A DNA stretch of 64,000 nt, taken from assembly GCF_050320075.1 (NCBI RefSeq), contig NZ_CP190018.1. One strand, written 5' to 3'. Positions 1,556 through 60,272 of the stretch are shown here, piece by piece. Every line of letters starts with the position of its first letter. Position 1 is the first letter of the stretch. The position numbers and the translations under genes are program-made. Source of the stretch: Escherichia coli. Lineage in GTDB: Bacteria; Pseudomonadota; Gammaproteobacteria; Enterobacterales; Enterobacteriaceae. The notes under the pieces are model-generated. The model was not told the origin of the DNA. It ran no database searches and was given only the letters and a program-made list of their open reading frames with translations.

Positions 1556-2968
1556 TTACCAACCGGAGGATGAGGGAACGTATATTTCTGTTTCTTCGCG
1601 GACCAATGCCGGGCAATGCATACACATCATCAGCGCATCAGCCAGGTTAGGAGATGGAATACCGAGCTTCTGCTTCATTTCGACCTTAGTCATTAGCTCA
1701 AGCTTCCCGTTGTTATTGAATTTGCGCTGAATCTGCGTCAGTTCTGCAAACAGCTTCTCCAGCATCTTCTCGCCTATCGCTTCTTTGTCGAAGCTCAGCA
1801 TGTCGTCGGGGTCTGCATACTCACCGTGGACAACCGCCCGATATGTCAGATACAGCCTGTCAGCCAGCGCGTAATAGAATTGCGCTCGCTTATTGCGGAA
1901 TACATCGCCAATAGTGCGAACGTTGTCGCCCTGTACGACTTCATCAGCCCATGCTCCGGCCTGATAAGGCCCATCTTCATCGAATGGCGATTCGCTGCCC
2001 TTGAACATCGTGGCGGTAATTTTCTTGCCGGAGAATGCTTCCGTTGTCTGTCTGCGTAGCCCTGCACCGACACCATCGCCATCCCACAGGTAATGGTCAG
2101 CGCCGTCTTCAATCGCCAGCGAAGTAGCCCAGTCAGCACCCTCGTTGATGTCCATCAGCAGACCTTCGGCAATGCGCTTAACCACCGAACCGTGACGCGA
2201 TGCGTAACCTTTAGCATCTGGCCCTGTATCTGATGGATCATGTGCAGAGACAACAGCGCCTTTCGCTTTCCATCCGAGTTTCTTGTGCGCATCGGTTGCG
2301 GCTTCAAGCCATTCACGTTTGATGATTGCCATATCACTTGCGCTTACTGGCTCACCAAGCCAGATGTGACGATACAGTGTCGGGTTTCTGCGTTTACACT
2401 CTTCCATCTCCAGACGGAGAACTTCAGGAAAGTGCGGGTTGTCGGTGTAGTTCACCGTCAGCAGGCAAATATCATCTGGAGGATTTATGACGAATCGCTG
2501 ATAGGTATCGTCGAGAATGTTTTTCGGGTTAAAGCTCACCCATATTTCGGAAAACGGCTTGCGGATGGTTGGTATCAGGATATCCCATGATTCCTTCGTT
2601 ACCGCTTCCGCTTCCTCCACCCAGCAAATATCAATACCTTCTAGCGATTTAATCTTCGTCGGGTTGTTTTTGATGCCGTAGAACATGAATTCAGCATTCG
2701 TTCCGAGATGACGAATCATGGAACGCTGAATTTCAAACTCAGCCGAATAGCCTTCCCGCTCTATGGTGTCTTCAAGCAACCGGATTACCGAATCGCTGAT
2801 ACTGTTTTGCAGTTCACGAGCGCAGAGAATACGCACTGGCTGCCGACGCGCCGCTTCAACAAGCAGCCTCGCAATTGCCCATGACTTACCGCTACCTCGA
2901 CCGCCTTTGGCGACTTTGTAGCGATGCGCCTCAATGAACGGTTCAAAGATAGGATTAATCGAGGTCAT
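1556..2968 (-). CDS. Terminase large subunit (headful/pac type)
   Basis: 470 aa ORF with Walker A KGGRGSGKS near the N-terminus; matches Sf6/P22-family TerL from memory; sits between terS and portal. Confidence 0.9.
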   Translation of the reverse strand: MTSINPIFEPFIEAHRYKVAKGGRGSGKSWAIARLLVEAARRQPVRILCARELQNSISDSVIRLLEDTIEREGYSAEFEIQRSMIRHLGTNAEFMFYGIKNNPTKIKSLEGIDICWVEEAEAVTKESWDILIPTIRKPFSEIWVSFNPKNILDDTYQRFVINPPDDICLLTVNYTDNPHFPEVLRLEMEECKRRNPTLYRHIWLGEPVSASDMAIIKREWLEAATDAHKKLGWKAKGAVVSAHDPSDTGPDAKGYASRHGSVVKRIAEGLLMDINEGADWATSLAIEDGADHYLWDGDGVGAGLRRQTTEAFSGKKITATMFKGSESPFDEDGPYQAGAWADEVVQGDNVRTIGDVFRNKRAQFYYALADRLYLTYRAVVHGEYADPDDMLSFDKEAIGEKMLEKLFAELTQIQRKFNNNGKLELMTKVEMKQKLGIPSPNLADALMMCMHCPALVREETEIYVPSSSGW

Positions 2969-3405
2969 TTTCCGAATAGAGTGCTCATCGGTGATGTTTC
3001 AATCTGAATTGCGCCGCCGTCTTTGCCTGTTAGCTCGTGATCAACCTTGTCGCGCCATTTATCCTTCTGTCGGTTCTTAAGCCAGAAAATGGCAGCGGTT
3101 GTATCAGGCGGGTAATACTTCTCAAGCGGAGTTTCGACAATTCTGTTTTCAATAACACGAATATCGATATCTGGAGCCACGAAGCCCATAGCGCGTTGAT
3201 AAAGACGATCACTAACTTCTGCATCAGCGACGGCCTTACCCTTTTTTATGGACTCCGAAAACTTAGGATAATCAAGCTTCCACTTGTTAATAGTTGACTC
3301 ACTGACTTCAAAGAAATCAGCAAGTTCTGCATCGGTGTAGCCCAGCAAGCACAGTTTGCGTGCCTGTTCGGCATACGCCTCTTGATACTTTGTTGGGCGC
3401 GCCAT
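2965..3405 (-). CDS. Terminase small subunit
   Basis: 146 aa ORF overlapping the terL start by 4 nt; HTH-like N-terminus; position immediately upstream of terL. Confidence 0.7.
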   Translation of the reverse strand: MARPTKYQEAYAEQARKLCLLGYTDAELADFFEVSESTINKWKLDYPKFSESIKKGKAVADAEVSDRLYQRAMGFVAPDIDIRVIENRIVETPLEKYYPPDTTAAIFWLKNRQKDKWRDKVDHELTGKDGGAIQIETSPMSTLFGK

Positions 3406-52146: not shown

Positions 52147-54288
52147 TCAAAATTGCCGCATATCCGGCATTCCGGGGGGTAAATCTTTCGGCACAGGCGC
52201 ATCCGGTACAGGTTGTGTGGCACCACAGTTCCAGTTAATCACCGGCGCATCACCGTTCACATCCGACTCTCCTTCCAGATGAATGTGCGTACCATTGAGA
52301 AATATGCTTCCGTCCTTCGTCAGCACCAACCTTGCCTTACCGCAGCAGAGTTCCAGATGCTCACCGGCAGAATAAACTGCTGTTTGTCCGGTGTTTTCCT
52401 TCATCGTCTTGCCCACCGAGAAGGTGACGTTATTCCCTACATTGACGCTGTAGCCCATTCCCACCATCAGTGATTTATGCAGCCCTACCTGTGAGGACTG
52501 CAACAACGCCACCGAGGTATTCATGATGCCGCCTACCGTCGTCTGGTAAGCCACGCCCACCGTCAGCGCACGAATGATCCCCACCTTTTCAACCTGGTTT
52601 GAACCCACTTTGACAATCTGGTTGCTGCCTACCGTTTCCACCTGGTTGACACCAACCGTCTGTATCTGATTAACGCCAATGTTCTGGATCTGGTTATTGG
52701 TAACGGTGATCGCCTGGTTGTTACCTATTTTTTCGGCATGGTTGTTTATCACATCAGTGGTGCGGTTATTCAGCACCTCGGTGTTCATGTTCTTCTGCGC
52801 GTGGATGTAGACCTGTTCTTTCCCTGTCGCATCGTCAAACTTCAGTTCATTAAACCCGCTGCCCTTATAGGTTTTTGAACGAATGGTCATCTGCGTCTTT
52901 GTTCCCGGCAGGCTGCCGGGGGTGCGGTTTTCCTGGTGGTAGGTGCGCCCCATAATAATCGGCTGGTCCGGATCGCCGTTGAGGAAGTCCACAATGACTT
53001 CCTGACCCACACGCGGTATCGCCAGGTTGCCAAAGCCGGTGCCTGCCCACGCCTGTGCCACACGGATCCAGCATGAACTGTCCTGGTTTGACGGGTTATA
53101 GCGGTCCCAGTTAAATTTCACCCGCACGCGGCCATGTTCATCACAGAAGATTTCTTCTCCTGCCGGTCCCGTCACGACGGCGCTCTGCGGGCCGTCCACC
53201 AGCGGTTTCAGCAACGGCTGTGGCCGCCATGTTCTGTCTGCCGGTATTACCGCAAAGTGGTTATTCAGCGTGGTACCTGAACCCCTGCGTCCCGGCACCG
53301 CCTGCGGCTGCTCGCCGTGCAGTTCACTTGCCACCACCTGCCATTCCCGGTTCAGGTTCGCCTGCGGATGCCCCGTCAGCGCAATTCGCCGTCCCGGCCA
53401 TATCTCCGGCGAACGGCTTGTTCCGCGCGCCACTTCTGCGTTGTTTCGCCAGCCATCCATCTGCCAGCAGGCAAAGTTCTGCCCGTGGGCACCCTTGAAA
53501 CGTCCGGGGTAGTCATACACTTCATACTGTGTGCGCTGGTAATCCTGGTGCTGGCCTTCCTGATCAAAACGCCCTGCCCAGCCGGGTCGTTTAAAGGTGT
53601 AGTCTTTGGTCACCACGGAAGATGGGCGGATTTGTGCGCTGTAGAGGAACTGGCTGATGCATAGGGTGCTCACCTCGGTACGGGTGTTCGGATTCCAGGG
53701 GATCTCAAAGGACTCCGGCAGATAACGCACGGTGTCGCACAGGACCAGGCTCTGGTCGGTACTTTTTTGCGCGTGCTCCTCATAAAAGAAGATGCCTTCC
53801 TCCGCCGCCATCCGGCACAGGAAATCGTAATCGGTTTCGCCGTACTGGACACAAAACTCACGGGAAGGATGCGGCTCGCTGAACAGCGGACTCCACTCGG
53901 TCACCCCGTTTTCTTTCAGGATCGTCGCGAGTATGCTTTCGATGTCCTCATTCTGGAAGATACGGAAGTTCTGGCGCAGCCCTGTGCGCCACAGCGGTGG
54001 GCACACCTTCATGCTGTACAGCATCTGGTTTTTGTCGTTCTCCCCCAGTTCAAACCAGGTCACCACACCTTTCACCCGGCGCTGTACGTCATCGCCCTGC
54101 CATACCGTCAGGTAGGCCATTTTGTCCAGCACCTGCGCAAATTCAAGGGAGAGAAACTGCTGGCTGACCAGAGAGAGATCGAGGGAAAAGAGCGAAGAGA
54201 GTGACTGGTTCAGATGAAAGGAGACCACCGCAAACGCGTCCGGTGGCAGGCCGTCCACTTCCAGCGTGAAACGTAATCCGGTTGACAT
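52147..54288 (-). CDS. vgrG: Type VI secretion spike protein VgrG
   Basis: 713 aa; gp27/gp5-like with C-terminal beta-helix repeats. Confidence 0.9.
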   Translation of the reverse strand: MSTGLRFTLEVDGLPPDAFAVVSFHLNQSLSSLFSLDLSLVSQQFLSLEFAQVLDKMAYLTVWQGDDVQRRVKGVVTWFELGENDKNQMLYSMKVCPPLWRTGLRQNFRIFQNEDIESILATILKENGVTEWSPLFSEPHPSREFCVQYGETDYDFLCRMAAEEGIFFYEEHAQKSTDQSLVLCDTVRYLPESFEIPWNPNTRTEVSTLCISQFLYSAQIRPSSVVTKDYTFKRPGWAGRFDQEGQHQDYQRTQYEVYDYPGRFKGAHGQNFACWQMDGWRNNAEVARGTSRSPEIWPGRRIALTGHPQANLNREWQVVASELHGEQPQAVPGRRGSGTTLNNHFAVIPADRTWRPQPLLKPLVDGPQSAVVTGPAGEEIFCDEHGRVRVKFNWDRYNPSNQDSSCWIRVAQAWAGTGFGNLAIPRVGQEVIVDFLNGDPDQPIIMGRTYHQENRTPGSLPGTKTQMTIRSKTYKGSGFNELKFDDATGKEQVYIHAQKNMNTEVLNNRTTDVINNHAEKIGNNQAITVTNNQIQNIGVNQIQTVGVNQVETVGSNQIVKVGSNQVEKVGIIRALTVGVAYQTTVGGIMNTSVALLQSSQVGLHKSLMVGMGYSVNVGNNVTFSVGKTMKENTGQTAVYSAGEHLELCCGKARLVLTKDGSIFLNGTHIHLEGESDVNGDAPVINWNCGATQPVPDAPVPKDLPPGMPDMRQF

Positions 54289-54497: not shown

Positions 54498-55016
54498 TTA
54501 TGCTTCCAGCGGTGCGCGCCAGTCGTCGGCACCGGAGGTGCCAGACTTGACGTGTTCCCACTCTATTTTGCGGTAGGCCAGTGAAACTTCGAGCAACTGG
54601 GTGAACTCGCGTTTCGCCGGATCCTGGCAATGCGGCATATGCAGTTTCATATCGACAATCGTCGAATCGGTCAGGCGGGTGGTGAAATAATGCTCCTGTT
54701 TGCCTTCCACAGAGGTACGCCACCAGTGAAGTTCAGTGGTTGGCAGCATTTCGCCGGAGGCCAGTGCGTTGTACATCAGCGGAACAGCTTTGTTCAGCGC
54801 CACGGTAAAAATGAACGGCTTGTGAGCACGCTGACCCGCAGGCTGGCCGGACTGAGGATCGGTCGGGACAGTAACGTTATGCAGGAATTCCTGCACCAGC
54901 ATCTCGTCTTCGTGCCCCTGCACATAGATGTTGCCGACAGAATCAGCGGTAAATGCACCTGCAGTAATATTTCCCTGGGTCTGACCAGTGATGGAGATAT
55001 AACACGGTGTTGGCAT
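54498..55016 (-). CDS. hcp: Type VI secretion tube protein Hcp
   Basis: 172 aa; Hcp-family sequence upstream of vgrG. Confidence 0.9.
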   Translation of the reverse strand: MPTPCYISITGQTQGNITAGAFTADSVGNIYVQGHEDEMLVQEFLHNVTVPTDPQSGQPAGQRAHKPFIFTVALNKAVPLMYNALASGEMLPTTELHWWRTSVEGKQEHYFTTRLTDSTIVDMKLHMPHCQDPAKREFTQLLEVSLAYRKIEWEHVKSGTSGADDWRAPLEA

Positions 55017-55712: not shown

Positions 55713-56213
55713 ATGAGCAAAAAATTTGAAGGCAGCGTCGCGCCTCGCGAGCGTATAAATATATCCTATGTCCCGAAGACGGACGGCCAGACGGCTGAAG
55801 TGGAGCTTCCGCTTAACATGCTCGTTGTCGGCGATACCGGAAATACGCAGGAGACATCCCCACTGGATGAACGTCAGGCAGTTTCCGTTAACAAGCACAA
55901 TTTCGGTGCGGTGATGGCTGAAGCAGCCATTGGCCTCAATTTTACCGTCCCCGCCACGCTGAAGGGAAGCACAACGGACGATGAACTGAATGTGGCGCTG
56001 AATATCAAGTCACTGGATGATTTTTCACCGGACAGCGTGGCCCGGCAGGTTCCGGAAGTTAATAAATTGCTGGAATTGCGTGAAGCACTGACTGCGCTGA
56101 AGGGGCCGATGGGCAACCTTCCGGCATTCCGTACCCAGCTCCAGGCATTGCTGGAAAATGAGGAGTCCCGCGAGCAGTTGCTCAAAGAAATCGGCCAAGT
56201 GAGTGGGAAATAA
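55713..56213 (+). CDS. tssB: T6SS sheath small subunit TssB (VipA)
   Basis: 166 aa; MSKKFEGSVAPRERINISY... Confidence 0.9.
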   Translation: MSKKFEGSVAPRERINISYVPKTDGQTAEVELPLNMLVVGDTGNTQETSPLDERQAVSVNKHNFGAVMAEAAIGLNFTVPATLKGSTTDDELNVALNIKSLDDFSPDSVARQVPEVNKLLELREALTALKGPMGNLPAFRTQLQALLENEESREQLLKEIGQVSGK

Positions 56214-56247
56214 CCACCACTATTTCATTAAACAGGGTTATCCAGAC

Positions 56248-56472
56248 ATGGCGGCACACAAAAATATCTCCGGGAAACACCCCCTCTCTGACGAAGACAT
56301 TTTGCAGGCGGTTTACCGGGTATGTTTCAGCCCGTCCGGTGAAATCAACCGGGATGGCGTGGATGCGCTGATTACAACACTGGATCGCCGTATCAGTGAT
56401 CTATTGGATGAGATTATCCATCTTTGTGAGTTTCAGCAGAGCGCGCCGTACTGGCGGCGCGTACTTCACTGA
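56248..56472 (+). CDS. Small hypothetical ORF between tssB and tssC
   Basis: 74 aa from the internal ATG of ORF 56203-56472; no recognisable family. Confidence 0.3.
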   Translation: MAAHKNISGKHPLSDEDILQAVYRVCFSPSGEINRDGVDALITTLDRRISDLLDEIIHLCEFQQSAPYWRRVLH

Positions 56473-56522
56473 CGGCGAAAACCCGGTTTCAGAAACACAG
56501 CTAAAACAGAAGGATTTTCAGT

Positions 56523-57998
56523 ATGTCTTTACAGGAAGAGGAACTCGTTTCCAGTCATGCCGGGCAGACTGATCAGGCATCGTCGCTGCTTGATCAAATC
56601 ATGGCTCAGACCCGTATTCAGCCCGGTTCAGAAGGTTATGACGTTGCCCGCCAGGGTGTGACAGCCTTTATTGCCAGCATCCTGCAATCCACTGCATCTG
56701 CCGAACCGGTCAATAAACTGGCCGTGGACAGCATGATTGCAGATATTGATGAACGCATCAGCCGCCAGATGGATGTCATCATCCATGCGCCTGCCTTTCA
56801 GCAGGTCGAGTCGTTCTGGCGCTCACTGAAAACCATGGTGGATCGCGTTGATTTCCGTGAAAACATCAAGGTCAACGTGCTTCATGTCACCAAGCAGGAA
56901 CTTCTGGAAGACTTTGAGTTTGCGCCAGAAATTATTCAGTCCGGATTTTATAAGCACGTTTATTCGTCCGGTTTCGGACAGTTTGGCGGTGAACCCATCG
57001 CTGCCGTGCTGGGCGCTTATGAGTTCAAAAATACCGCGCCTGACATGAAACTGCTGCAATACGTCAGTGCCGTGGGCGCAATGGCGCACGCACCGTTCCT
57101 GTCCTCCGTTTCCCCGGAGTTTATGGGGCTGAACTCGTGGACCGAACTGCCTAATATCAAAGATCTTTATGCCATCTTTGAAGGTCCGGCCTACACCAAA
57201 TGGCGCGCCCTGCGTGACTCGGAAGATTCGCGCTATTTAGGGCTTACGGCACCCCGCTTCCTGCTTCGCCAGCCCTATTCACCAACAGATAACCCTGTTA
57301 AGAACTTTAACTATTACGAAGATGTCAGCCAGAACCACGAAGATTATCTGTGGGGTAATACGGCCTGGATGCTGGCATGCAATATCGCAGACAGTTTTGC
57401 CAAATACCGCTGGTGTCCAAACATTATCGGTCCGCAAAGCGGCGGCGCAGTGAAAGATCTGCCGGTGCATCTGTTCGAAACGATGGGGCAGATTCAGGCC
57501 AAAATCCCAACCGAGGTGCTGGTCACCGATCGCCGCGAATTTGAACTGGCTGAAGAGGGTTTTATCACCCTTACCATGCGTAAAGACTCTGATAATGCAG
57601 CCTTTTTCTCTGCAAACTCGGTACAAAAACCGAAGCACTTTCCGGGAAAAGACGCAGAAACCAACTATAAGCTGGGTACGCAGCTTCCTTATCTCTTCAT
57701 CATCAATCGGTTAGCGCACTACATCAAGGTGTTGCAGCGTGAACAACTGGGGTCATGGAAAGAAAGGAGCGACTTAGAAAGAGAGCTTAATACCTGGATC
57801 CGTCAGTATGTTGCCGACCAGGAAAACCCGCCTGCAGACGTGCGCAGCCGCAAACCTCTGCGCGCTGCCAAAGTTGAGGTTATGGATGTAGAAGGCGAAC
57901 CCGGCTGGTACCAGGTTGCGCTAAGCGTGAGGCCTCATTTTAAATTTATGGGGGCAAATTTTGAGCTTTCCCTGGTTGGCCGGTTAGACAGGGAGTAA
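56523..57998 (+). CDS. tssC: T6SS sheath large subunit TssC (VipB)
   Basis: 491 aa. Confidence 0.95.
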   Translation: MSLQEEELVSSHAGQTDQASSLLDQIMAQTRIQPGSEGYDVARQGVTAFIASILQSTASAEPVNKLAVDSMIADIDERISRQMDVIIHAPAFQQVESFWRSLKTMVDRVDFRENIKVNVLHVTKQELLEDFEFAPEIIQSGFYKHVYSSGFGQFGGEPIAAVLGAYEFKNTAPDMKLLQYVSAVGAMAHAPFLSSVSPEFMGLNSWTELPNIKDLYAIFEGPAYTKWRALRDSEDSRYLGLTAPRFLLRQPYSPTDNPVKNFNYYEDVSQNHEDYLWGNTAWMLACNIADSFAKYRWCPNIIGPQSGGAVKDLPVHLFETMGQIQAKIPTEVLVTDRREFELAEEGFITLTMRKDSDNAAFFSANSVQKPKHFPGKDAETNYKLGTQLPYLFIINRLAHYIKVLQREQLGSWKERSDLERELNTWIRQYVADQENPPADVRSRKPLRAAKVEVMDVEGEPGWYQVALSVRPHFKFMGANFELSLVGRLDRE

Positions 57999-58004
57999 CA
58001 CACC

Positions 58005-58418
58005 ATGATACCGGATCGGGAAAGAACCACAGGTTCTCTTTTTGAGCGTATGGAAGCCTCTTCAGCCAGAAACCGGCAGGGAGGCAGTATTCATTCGCTC
58101 AGGCAATCCATTCGCCAGAACCTACGAAACATTCTTAATACCCGGTCCGGTAGTTGCCGGGGTGCGCCTGAGCTGGGCATTGATGAACCGGAAGGGGCTG
58201 AAAACTTCCGCGAATCAATGAGTCGGGCCATCGCGCAATGTATAGAACGCTATGAACCCCGGATCTCACGCGCTGAAGTGCAGGCAGTGGTTTCATCCGC
58301 CTCCAGCCCGCTGGATATGACGTTTCATATTACAGCCTGGGTGACATTTAACGAAACGCATGAGGTGCTTGAATTTGATATGGCACCGAATGGCAGCCAG
58401 CATTACCGGGTGGACTGA
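58005..58418 (+). CDS. tssE: T6SS baseplate protein TssE (gp25-like)
   Basis: 137 aa. Confidence 0.85.
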   Translation: MIPDRERTTGSLFERMEASSARNRQGGSIHSLRQSIRQNLRNILNTRSGSCRGAPELGIDEPEGAENFRESMSRAIAQCIERYEPRISRAEVQAVVSSASSPLDMTFHITAWVTFNETHEVLEFDMAPNGSQHYRVD

Positions 58419-58421
58419 CAA

Positions 58422-60272
58422 ATGGAATTTGAAGAACGCTATTTCCGGGAAGAACTCGATTACCTGCGCCAGCTTAGCAAGCTGCTGGCAACGGAAAAAC
58501 CCCATCTGGCCCGCTTCCTGGCCGAAAAAGATGCAGATCCGGATATTGAACGCCTGCTGGAAGGGGTGGCTTTTCTTACCGGCAATCTCCGCCAGAAAAT
58601 TGAGGATGAATTCCCAGAACTGACGCACGGGCTTATTAAGATGCTATGGCCTAATTACCTGCGTCCGGTTCCGGCAATGACCCTTATTGAATATACGCCG
58701 GATATGGATAAGTCTTCTGTGCCGGTGTTAATCCCCCGTAATGAGCAGTTTACAACCAACGCCGGGGAAATTAGAGTCGATGAAGTGCTGCCCTCCGATG
58801 CTAAAAAGGAGGAGCCGCCTCCCTGTACCTTCACCCTCTGCCGGGATATCTGGCTGCTGCCCGTTCGCCTGGAGCAGATTGAAAACCGCAGTACGACCCG
58901 TAATGGTGTTATCAACATCACCTTTTCGGTCGCACCGGGAACGGACTTCCGCACGCTGGATCTGAACAAACTTCGCTTCTGGCTCGGCAATGACGACAAC
59001 TATACCCGTGACCAGCTTTATTTATGGTTCTGTGAATACTTGCAGGGTGCCGACCTGACTGTGGGTGAACAGCATATTCGCCTGCCTGAGTTTATGCTGA
59101 AAGCTGTCGGTTTTGAGCCACAGGATGCCATGCTGCCCTGGCCGAAAAACGTCCACAGCGGCTACCGGATCCTTCAGGAGTATTTCTGTTACCCGGATGC
59201 GTTTCTCTTTTTTGATCTTTGTGGTTGTCCGGCGTTGCCTGACGGATTGCAGGCTGAATCCTTTACCCTGCAACTGCGTTTTTCGCGCCCATTGCCCGTG
59301 GACATCCGGTTGCGCCGCGACTCCCTGCGCCTGTATTGCGCACCTGCCATTAATTTATTTATCCACCATGCAGAAGCCATCACGCTGGACAACCGGCGGG
59401 CAGACTATCCGCTGGTTCCCAGCCGCCATTATCCGGAACATTACGATGTCTTTTCCGTTAACGGCGTGATAAGCCAGGTGCAGGATATGTTCAGGAAAAA
59501 AGATCTGGGGCGTCCTGTTTCGACGCAGGCCGCGCGCCAGTGGCCTGCCTTTGAAAGTTTCAGCCATCAGATGGAATACAGCCGGAAGCGGGAAGTGGTG
59601 TACTGGCATCACCGGACCAAAACATCCCTGTTCCATCGCGGCTTTGATCATACCCTTGCTTTTATACATGCTGATGGCAGTTATCCGTCAGACGAATCGC
59701 TGCTCAGTAATGAAGTGGTTTCGGTATCGCTGACCTGTACCAACCGTGAGCTTCCGTCACAAATTCGTTCCGGCGATATCACCGGCACAACCGGTAAAAA
59801 TGCGGCTGTTGCTTCATTTCGCAACATTACCCGCCCGACGCAACCGCTCTGGCCGGTCATTGATGGCAGCCTGCACTGGTCCCTGCTCTCCGCCATGAAC
59901 CTGAATTATCTGTCATTACTGGATACGGACGCGCTGAAGCAGGTCATCGCCAACTTTGATCGCCACGCAATCCATCATCCGCAGACGGCGCGGCTGTCAC
60001 AACAAAAGCTGGATGCCATTGAGCGTCTGGAGACTCGCCCTGTCGACCGCCTGTTTACGGGCATTCCCGTCCGGGGGCTGGCCTCCACGCTGTATCTGCA
60101 CCCGGAGCCGTTTGTCTGTGAAGGGGAAATGTATCTGCTCGGTACGGTGCTTTCGCATTTTCTGTCGCTGTACGCCAGCGTTAACTCATTCCACATGCTG
60201 ACCGTTGTGAACACAGAAAGCCAGGAGACATGGAAATGGACGGAAAGAACCGGGCAGCATCCTCTTATCTGA
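58422..60272 (+). CDS. tssF: T6SS baseplate protein TssF
   Basis: 616 aa. Confidence 0.9.
   Translation: MEFEERYFREELDYLRQLSKLLATEKPHLARFLAEKDADPDIERLLEGVAFLTGNLRQKIEDEFPELTHGLIKMLWPNYLRPVPAMTLIEYTPDMDKSSVPVLIPRNEQFTTNAGEIRVDEVLPSDAKKEEPPPCTFTLCRDIWLLPVRLEQIENRSTTRNGVINITFSVAPGTDFRTLDLNKLRFWLGNDDNYTRDQLYLWFCEYLQGADLTVGEQHIRLPEFMLKAVGFEPQDAMLPWPKNVHSGYRILQEYFCYPDAFLFFDLCGCPALPDGLQAESFTLQLRFSRPLPVDIRLRRDSLRLYCAPAINLFIHHAEAITLDNRRADYPLVPSRHYPEHYDVFSVNGVISQVQDMFRKKDLGRPVSTQAARQWPAFESFSHQMEYSRKREVVYWHHRTKTSLFHRGFDHTLAFIHADGSYPSDESLLSNEVVSVSLTCTNRELPSQIRSGDITGTTGKNAAVASFRNITRPTQPLWPVIDGSLHWSLLSAMNLNYLSLLDTDALKQVIANFDRHAIHHPQTARLSQQKLDAIERLETRPVDRLFTGIPVRGLASTLYLHPEPFVCEGEMYLLGTVLSHFLSLYASVNSFHMLTVVNTESQETWKWTERTGQHPLI

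Follow-up and report, generated by a model that had tools for sequence, protein, structure and literature searches.

The small open reading frame (ORF) that lies between the sheath genes tssB and tssC in the type VI secretion system 2 (T6SS-2) cluster of Escherichia coli is most probably a non-functional relic of a partial duplication of the 5' end of tssC, co-transcribed with its neighbors, possibly translated, and not maintained by selection; we give this reading a probability of roughly 0.8. The ORF is homologous to residues 58-102 of TssC, is restricted to one sub-lineage of T6SS clusters, shows a neutral pattern of substitution and has been disrupted independently in different lineages. 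It is best supported as a further example of a familiar kind, a partial-duplication pseudogene that is called as a small gene, and not as a new sheath-associated protein.

The tssB-tssC region

The stretch of DNA analyzed here, referred to as the window, comprises 64,000 nucleotides, and its segment 55600-56700 is 100% identical to E. coli strain 7/2. A 74-89 aa ORF between tssB and tssC had been described in an earlier note on this DNA; the ORF is indeed present, and the names given to the flanking genes are borne out by family profile matches. The features of the region, in window coordinates, are the following.

52147-54288, divergently transcribed, upstream of tssB: vgrG
54498-55016, divergently transcribed, upstream of tssB: hcp
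55713-56213, + strand: tssB (Z0264 in EDL933), sheath small subunit, 166 aa (PF05591, 1.1e-51; TIGR03358, 1.1e-50; RefSeq annotation in strain 7/2)
56214-56247, + strand: spacer between tssB and the ORF, with a decayed Shine-Dalgarno relic, cAGGGtt, at 56233-56239; read as the ancestral tssB-tssC spacer
56248-56472, + strand: small ORF in its RefSeq form, 74 aa (WP_001521869; Z0263 by position); read as a relic of the tssC 5' end
56329-56463, + strand: relic core homologous to TssC residues 58-102 (BLASTP, hhalign, nhmmer)
56473-56522, + strand: second copy of the spacer, with the tssC ribosome-binding site AAGGA at 56510-56514 (alignment of eight lineages)
56523-57998, + strand: tssC (Z0262 in EDL933), sheath large subunit, 491 aa (TIGR03355, 1.4e-211; PF05943 and PF18945); read as the parent gene of the relic
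58005-58418, + strand: tssE
58422-60272, + strand: tssF

The gap between tssB and tssC measures 309 nt. Two versions of the ORF can be read in it, an 89-aa form that runs on the + strand from a GTG at 56203 to 56472, its start overlapping the last 11 nt of tssB, and the 74-aa form that begins at the ATG at 56248, which RefSeq labels "hypothetical protein" (WP_001521869 here; WP_000123970 in O157:H7). As tssB of EDL933 has been assigned to Z0264 (PMC7216683) and vipB/tssC to Z0262 (PMC12981562), the ORF between them must be Z0263. No publication on the expression or function of Z0263 was found, its sole mention in the literature being as a presence/absence marker in a virulence-gene screen; Z0263 is among the genes that separate stx-negative from stx-positive strains in a genomic survey (PMC10657854). 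A literature search returned no paper that names the RefSeq accessions of the ORF, and none that describes a tssC relic.

Similarity to the N-terminal region of TssC

The earlier note had recognized no similarity for this ORF, a statement that does not hold once the ORF is compared with the adjacent gene product. Residues 48-87 (89-aa numbering) match residues 63-102 of the adjacent TssC with 43% identity (BLASTP, E 1e-9), and a profile-profile comparison by hhalign, in which ten frame-repaired members of the ORF family were set against fifteen TssC N-termini, pairs ORF residues 28-72 with TssC 58-102 at 97.9% probability (E 5.4e-13). Sub-threshold matches of the family profiles fall in the same place: PF05943 (VipB) scores 16.5 bits, below its cut-off of 27, over profile positions 1-34 of 301, and TIGR03355 scores 17.4 bits against a cut-off of 271.5, likewise over its first positions. 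At the DNA level, an nhmmer profile built from 16 insertion-less clusters only matches the gap colinearly at tssC nt ~+198 to +293 in seven of the eight lineages, with scores of 1.8-10.1, the best of 400 shuffles reaching -0.4. The relic is truncated, lies on the same strand as the intact tssC, 51 nt upstream of it, and spans at most ~codons 1-118 of 491. Its best-kept part across lineages is the core LIxxLDxRIxxLMDEIIH.

The TssC of the window is close to Vibrio cholerae VipB (5mxn, E 8e-247). The model of the contracted VipA/VipB sheath (3J9G) starts at the equivalent of TssC residue 64, and according to Douzi et al. (2016; PMC5048182) the visible part begins at residue 61, after a flexible ClpV-docking helix. 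Together with the homology to TssC 58-102, these structures indicate that the ORF reproduces the stretch of ~40 residues with which the ordered part of the sheath subunit begins. The resemblance to TssC/VipB (PF05943, TIGR03355) is thus one to the first positions of the PF05943 profile; the ORF differs from these proteins in that it covers only ~45 of the 491 residues, has no middle domain, shows no coding constraint and is broken in several lineages. A Pfam search gave no PF18945 match for the ORF, which accordingly has neither the gpW/gp25-like C-terminal domain nor a complete sheath fold.

Upstream of the core, ORF residues 1-27 have no significant similarity to TssC 1-57 (hhalign E 0.21). 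To judge from the residues themselves, LSDEDILQAV in the relic could be what remains of LLDQIMAQTR in TssC; an alternative register of low confidence, obtained in both greedy and global hhalign runs, places Met1 of the ORF on Met27 of TssC. Local alignment of the gap DNA to E. coli tssC recovered only a marginal 52-nt in-register match, with a score of 29 against a shuffle maximum of 28. The ORF residues VYRVCFSPSG (56314-56343) resemble a WD40 repeat motif, and the multi-stretch matches to long WD40 proteins seen in exhaustive protein searches were discarded as spurious, arising via this motif.

Distribution of the insertion

Scanning one genome per species with TssC yielded 73 loci. A tssB-tssC gap of ~290-315 nt is found only in clusters whose TssC is at least 87% identical, and these belong to Escherichia (including E. 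albertii), Citrobacter youngae, Atlantibacter subterranea, Yokenella regensburgei and two metagenomic lineages, L077 and L078, which came from protein searches. Some 50 more distant clusters from other genera, among them Rahnella, Buttiauxella, Yersinia, Serratia, Trabulsiella, Lonsdalea, the Halomonas group, Photobacterium, Helicobacter and Campylobacter, have the two genes ~0-70 nt apart, with one outlier at ~163 nt, in agreement with the earlier note's view that tssB and tssC are usually adjacent; a wide gap is unusual. In the narrow-gap clusters the best tblastn match of the ORF falls inside tssC itself. An exhaustive phmmer search of 1.84e9 representative proteins located the ORF family nowhere beyond this locus, and neither that search nor a word-indexed protein search revealed a TssC nearer to the relic than the resident one.

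Within E. coli, the gap sequence occurs in 2,257 of 5,426 complete genomes and exists as essentially two haplotypes, one at least 99% identical to the window (272 genomes) and the other 90-95% identical to it (1,967 genomes); the ORF is called as a "hypothetical protein" in ~2,240 of the 5,426 complete genomes of the collection searched. A metagenome-assembled genome labeled Citrobacter sp. HRGM_Genome_0066 carries TssB and TssC 99% identical to those of E. coli together with an O157-type relic, and its contig is probably Escherichia DNA, either mis-binned or recently transferred. A separate event at the same gene junction is seen in Yersinia pestis NCTC5923 (locus L018, ~2931-3000), where the 67-nt tssB-tssC spacer holds two short tandem copies of tagctcttcatcaaaa[g/a]taa, the 3' end of tssB; this is an independent small duplication.

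State of the reading frame and substitution pattern

The earlier note had proposed to look for conservation of the ORF in related clusters and had named stops or frameshifts there as a refuting result; such lesions were indeed uncovered in three of the lineages compared. In the type strain of E. albertii (NBRC 107761, L026) the ATG has become GCG, 18 nt have been deleted, and the ORF is interrupted by frameshifts and an in-frame stop; a TGA stands at codon 21 in C. youngae, and Yokenella shows a +1 frameshift and a TAG. The ORF of L078 ends early, before the conserved Trp, and that of L077 has lost its stop and reads into tssC out of frame. Open versions are found in E. coli, in Atlantibacter and in the types P0004 and P0030, and the Escherichia protein clusters of the ORF also include frameshifted, deleted and read-through variants. 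In genomes with a broken relic both tssB and tssC are intact, with w = 0.03-0.13; since the ORF is broken where its neighbors are under strong purifying selection, it must be dispensable there. E. albertii harbors two states of the relic, an intact one (P0004, 86% identical to the E. coli window type) and the heavily decayed one of the type strain, and their sequences suggest that an allele was replaced by recombination with E. coli.

Between the two E. coli haplotypes the ORF shows 15 non-synonymous and 3 synonymous differences (dN/dS ~1.5), against dN/dS values, in the same genomes, of 0.04-0.07 for tssB and 0.08-0.29 for tssC. Constraint at w = 0.1 was rejected (P = 5e-7), as was w = 0.3 (P = 5e-3); neutrality was not, the 18 differences behind the ratio of 1.5 giving P = 0.80. 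The frame is open in 59 of 59 full-length sampled E. coli genomes. This was considered as a sign of selection and set aside, as these genomes amount effectively to two haplotypes and in neutral simulations the frame stayed open in 55% of trials at 18 substitutions (9-18% at 60-90 substitutions). We infer from this pattern that the ORF is without function in E. coli as well.

The distribution of differences over codon positions is also that of a sequence free of coding constraint. In the pairwise comparisons of the Citrobacter/Atlantibacter/Yokenella trio the relic differs evenly at first, second and third positions (8/8/7, 6/9/11 and 8/10/8), in contrast to tssC (10/2/71, 13/2/59 and 15/4/58); the counts are 6/10/2 between the E. 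coli haplotypes and 24/13/21 between E. coli and E. albertii. Deep comparisons of the relic have a weak third-position excess (29/22/40, p = 0.07; 35/26/47, p = 0.05), which could reflect either early constraint or an inherited codon-position composition. Overall, the nucleotide divergence of the relic is ~0.5-1 times that of four-fold degenerate sites of the neighboring genes; in the Citrobacter/Atlantibacter/Yokenella trio it is somewhat slower, 0.11-0.12 against 0.14-0.27 at four-fold sites, and pN/pS in that trio is 0.4-0.6, not 1. These deviations, like the preservation of the core, count against the relic reading.

The two haplotypes differ unequally along the locus. Between the window and O157:H7 strain 2149 the tssB dS is 0.18, the relic K is 0.08 and the tssC dS is 0.01, values which suggest that the haplotypes form a recombination mosaic with a breakpoint near the relic/tssC boundary, at ~56470-56520.

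A probable origin by tandem duplication

The sub-lineage that carries the insertion comprises the E. coli T6SS-2 and its closest relatives in Citrobacter, Atlantibacter and Yokenella and in two uncultured lineages. In an ancestor of this group a tandem duplication most likely copied a segment of ~370 bp, from ~-18 to ~+354 of tssC, that is, from the tssB-tssC spacer to ~codon 105-118 of tssC. The downstream copy, with a ribosome-binding site of its own, would have stayed the working tssC; the upstream copy would have kept the old spacer and start position, lost ~80-90 nt and drifted ever since. The relic would be transcribed within the tssB operon, and a short peptide may be made from it, more probably where the old Shine-Dalgarno sequence survives. 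We infer a tandem duplication, and do not state it as an observation, because ORF residues 1-27 show no significant match, a second register (Met1 on Met27) exists and the DNA self-similarity is marginal; since two colinear alignments can be drawn, the boundaries given here are approximate.

Several features of the gap can be set beside this scheme. In insertion-less clusters a spacer of 20-31 nt that includes aGAGGGAaTTTT separates the tssB stop from the start of tssC, ATG TCx TTA CAx GAA GAA, and the ATG of the relic is as far from the tssB stop as the tssC ATG is in those clusters. The Shine-Dalgarno duplex of the relic has an energy of -8.2 to -8.4 kcal/mol in Atlantibacter, Yokenella and L078 (-5.1 to -8.4 across the non-E. 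coli lineages); it reaches only -3.3 kcal/mol in E. coli, a value equaled by 39% of random ATGs. The first codons of the relic can resemble those of tssC, as in Atlantibacter (MSL...) and in L078 (ATG tgc acg CAG AAA GAA GAA ... GTT TCC), and the nhmmer match of L078 aligns the relic ATG on the tssC ATG, at an E of only 0.06. The working tssC is preceded by a second copy of the spacer motif (AGAAGGATTTTCAGT ATG), nearly invariant across lineages, which resembles the Buttiauxella/Rahnella spacer "agaaggatttt"; the tssC Shine-Dalgarno duplex is at -5.5 kcal/mol. As a separate observation, the Shine-Dalgarno sequence of tssB itself (upstream segment 55693-55712) is weak (-3.3 kcal/mol, a value that 39% of random ATGs match), unlike those of tssC, tssE and tssF, which range from -5.5 to -7.7; the poor TssB yield reported for EHEC (PMC13141884) may be related to this weakness.

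Alternative explanations

The same relic could also be the scar of a gene replacement, in which recombination would have brought in a foreign tssC, complete with its ribosome-binding site, along with the genes downstream of it, and what remained of an earlier and different tssC would be its 5' end. The identity of only ~38-43% between the relic and the resident TssC N-terminus would fit such a history, as would the recombinogenic character of the locus, where tssB dS is 0.18 and tssC dS 0.01 between the E. coli haplotypes. We regard it as quite unlikely: among the 1.84e9 representative proteins no other TssC is closer to the relic, the spacer copy in front of tssC looks like that of sister clusters, which is what a tandem duplication would predict, and neutral decay over more than 1.3 substitutions per synonymous site suffices to account for the low identity. 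Such a replacement would change the origin only, the ORF being a non-functional relic in either case. The main rival to the relic reading, which we consider improbable all the same, holds that the inserted DNA acts in cis and that the ORF is incidental, the ~260-nt relic and a 45-nt leader uncoupling the translation of tssC from that of tssB and serving as a regulatory 5' leader of tssC. What acts there might be an internal promoter, a CsrA site or an element that governs the processing or stability of the mRNA, and the TssB:TssC ratio or the timing of expression would be tuned in this way. The length of the insertion is near-constant, with an ATG-to-ATG distance of 259-283 nt in eight of eight lineages at a synonymous divergence of the flanking genes above 1.3; because only deletions wholly within the relic would be tolerated, this persistence is weak evidence. 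In the alignment of the eight lineages hardly any change is seen in the ~45 nt that immediately precede tssC, a conservation simply explained by the ribosome-binding region of tssC, and in one clade the divergence of the relic is slightly below that of four-fold sites. A recent study of EHEC (PMC13141884, 2026) described an AGGA motif of CsrA type 8 nt 5' of tssC and cited CsrA repression of tssC; tssB and tssC belong to different operons according to Kim et al. (2022), as that study cites them, and the study itself found the EHEC tssB operon to be a single polycistronic transcript, which speaks against a separate one. Our searches of the gap lent no support to a leader: a consensus scan of 56214-56522 detected no sigma-70-like promoter or intrinsic-terminator motif, Rfam gave no match at E <= 1, the folding z-score of the gap was -1.48, with 8 of 100 shuffles equally good, and RNAalifold indicated no conserved RNA structure, its covariation term being ~0 (-0.3 kcal/mol).

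The remaining readings give the ORF a product with a role. The earlier note had offered an accessory sheath-associated protein, a regulatory peptide or a spurious ORF; the broken frames, the dN/dS of ~1.5 and the flat codon positions count against the two functional options and leave the spurious ORF as the closest, except that the sequence is not random intergenic DNA, being a relic of the 5' part of tssC. As a real small Escherichia protein, young and fast-evolving under relaxed or positive selection, the ORF product would mimic the TssC N-terminus, bind TssB, the sheath or ClpV and modulate sheath assembly or recycling, which we judge very unlikely. In favor of such a protein are an open frame, annotated in ~2,240 E. 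coli genomes, an origin in the segment of TssC that adjoins the ClpV-docking helix and includes the first ordered residues, a core motif preserved from lineage to lineage, and an AlphaFold model of two helices (mean pLDDT 79); a dN/dS above 1 would also be expected under positive selection. Against this, a ratio drawn from 18 differences is indistinguishable from neutrality, codon-position use is flat, the frame has been lost in C. youngae, Yokenella and the type strain of E. albertii, the E. coli Shine-Dalgarno sequence is weak, residues 1-27 show no significant match to the ClpV-binding helix, and the literature that was searched holds no account of Z0263 expression or function; a Foldseek search of the AlphaFold model against the PDB returned only generic helical hairpins (E > 4) and is uninformative. 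A narrower version, in which the relic was recruited in Escherichia as a newborn two-helix micro-protein that mimics the TssC N-terminus, is made from the tssB operon, binds TssB or the N-domain of ClpV and damps or times sheath assembly and recycling, appears to us highly improbable; were it true, the dN/dS above 1 would mean positive selection and not drift. The peptides to compare it with are the ClpV-binding N-terminal helices of TssC/VipB (PMC5048182): the relic comes from the same N-terminal ~100 residues of TssC, but the correspondence of LSDEDILQAV with LLDQIMAQTR is without statistical support, and the other register puts the Met of the relic after most of that helix.

Known parallels and implications

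The reading of the ORF as a decayed copy of the tssC 5' end has parallels in the same EHEC island. Remnants such as the split tssA of EHEC (Z0251/Z0252) and the TssA C-terminal fragment Z0249 (PMC7216683) are likewise truncated copies of a core gene that are called as small ORFs, and partial-duplication pseudogenes in operons share with the relic neutral substitutions and lineage-specific stops and frameshifts. The lesion in EHEC tssA differs in being a recent single-nucleotide deletion; the tssC relic is older and common to at least four genera. Other lesions were encountered in the genomes compared. The tssC of O157:H7 (L002, 2423-3814) is cut to 463 aa by a nonsense codon, a mutation that has been reported as part of T6SS degeneration in O157 (PMC12981562), and in strain CAVP766 (L003, 399-917) hcp is a pseudogene with an internal stop.

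Taken together, these data indicate that the ORF is best regarded as a remnant derived from tssC and not as a component of the T6SS, and the main value of this result is for annotation. Because of the relic, tssB and tssC of the E. coli T6SS-2 are not adjacent but ~310 nt apart, a distance that matters for engineering or modeling the expression of this tightly repressed system. The insertion is, in addition, a shared derived marker, by which the T6SS-2 clusters of Escherichia, Citrobacter youngae, Atlantibacter and Yokenella are traced back to one common ancestor.
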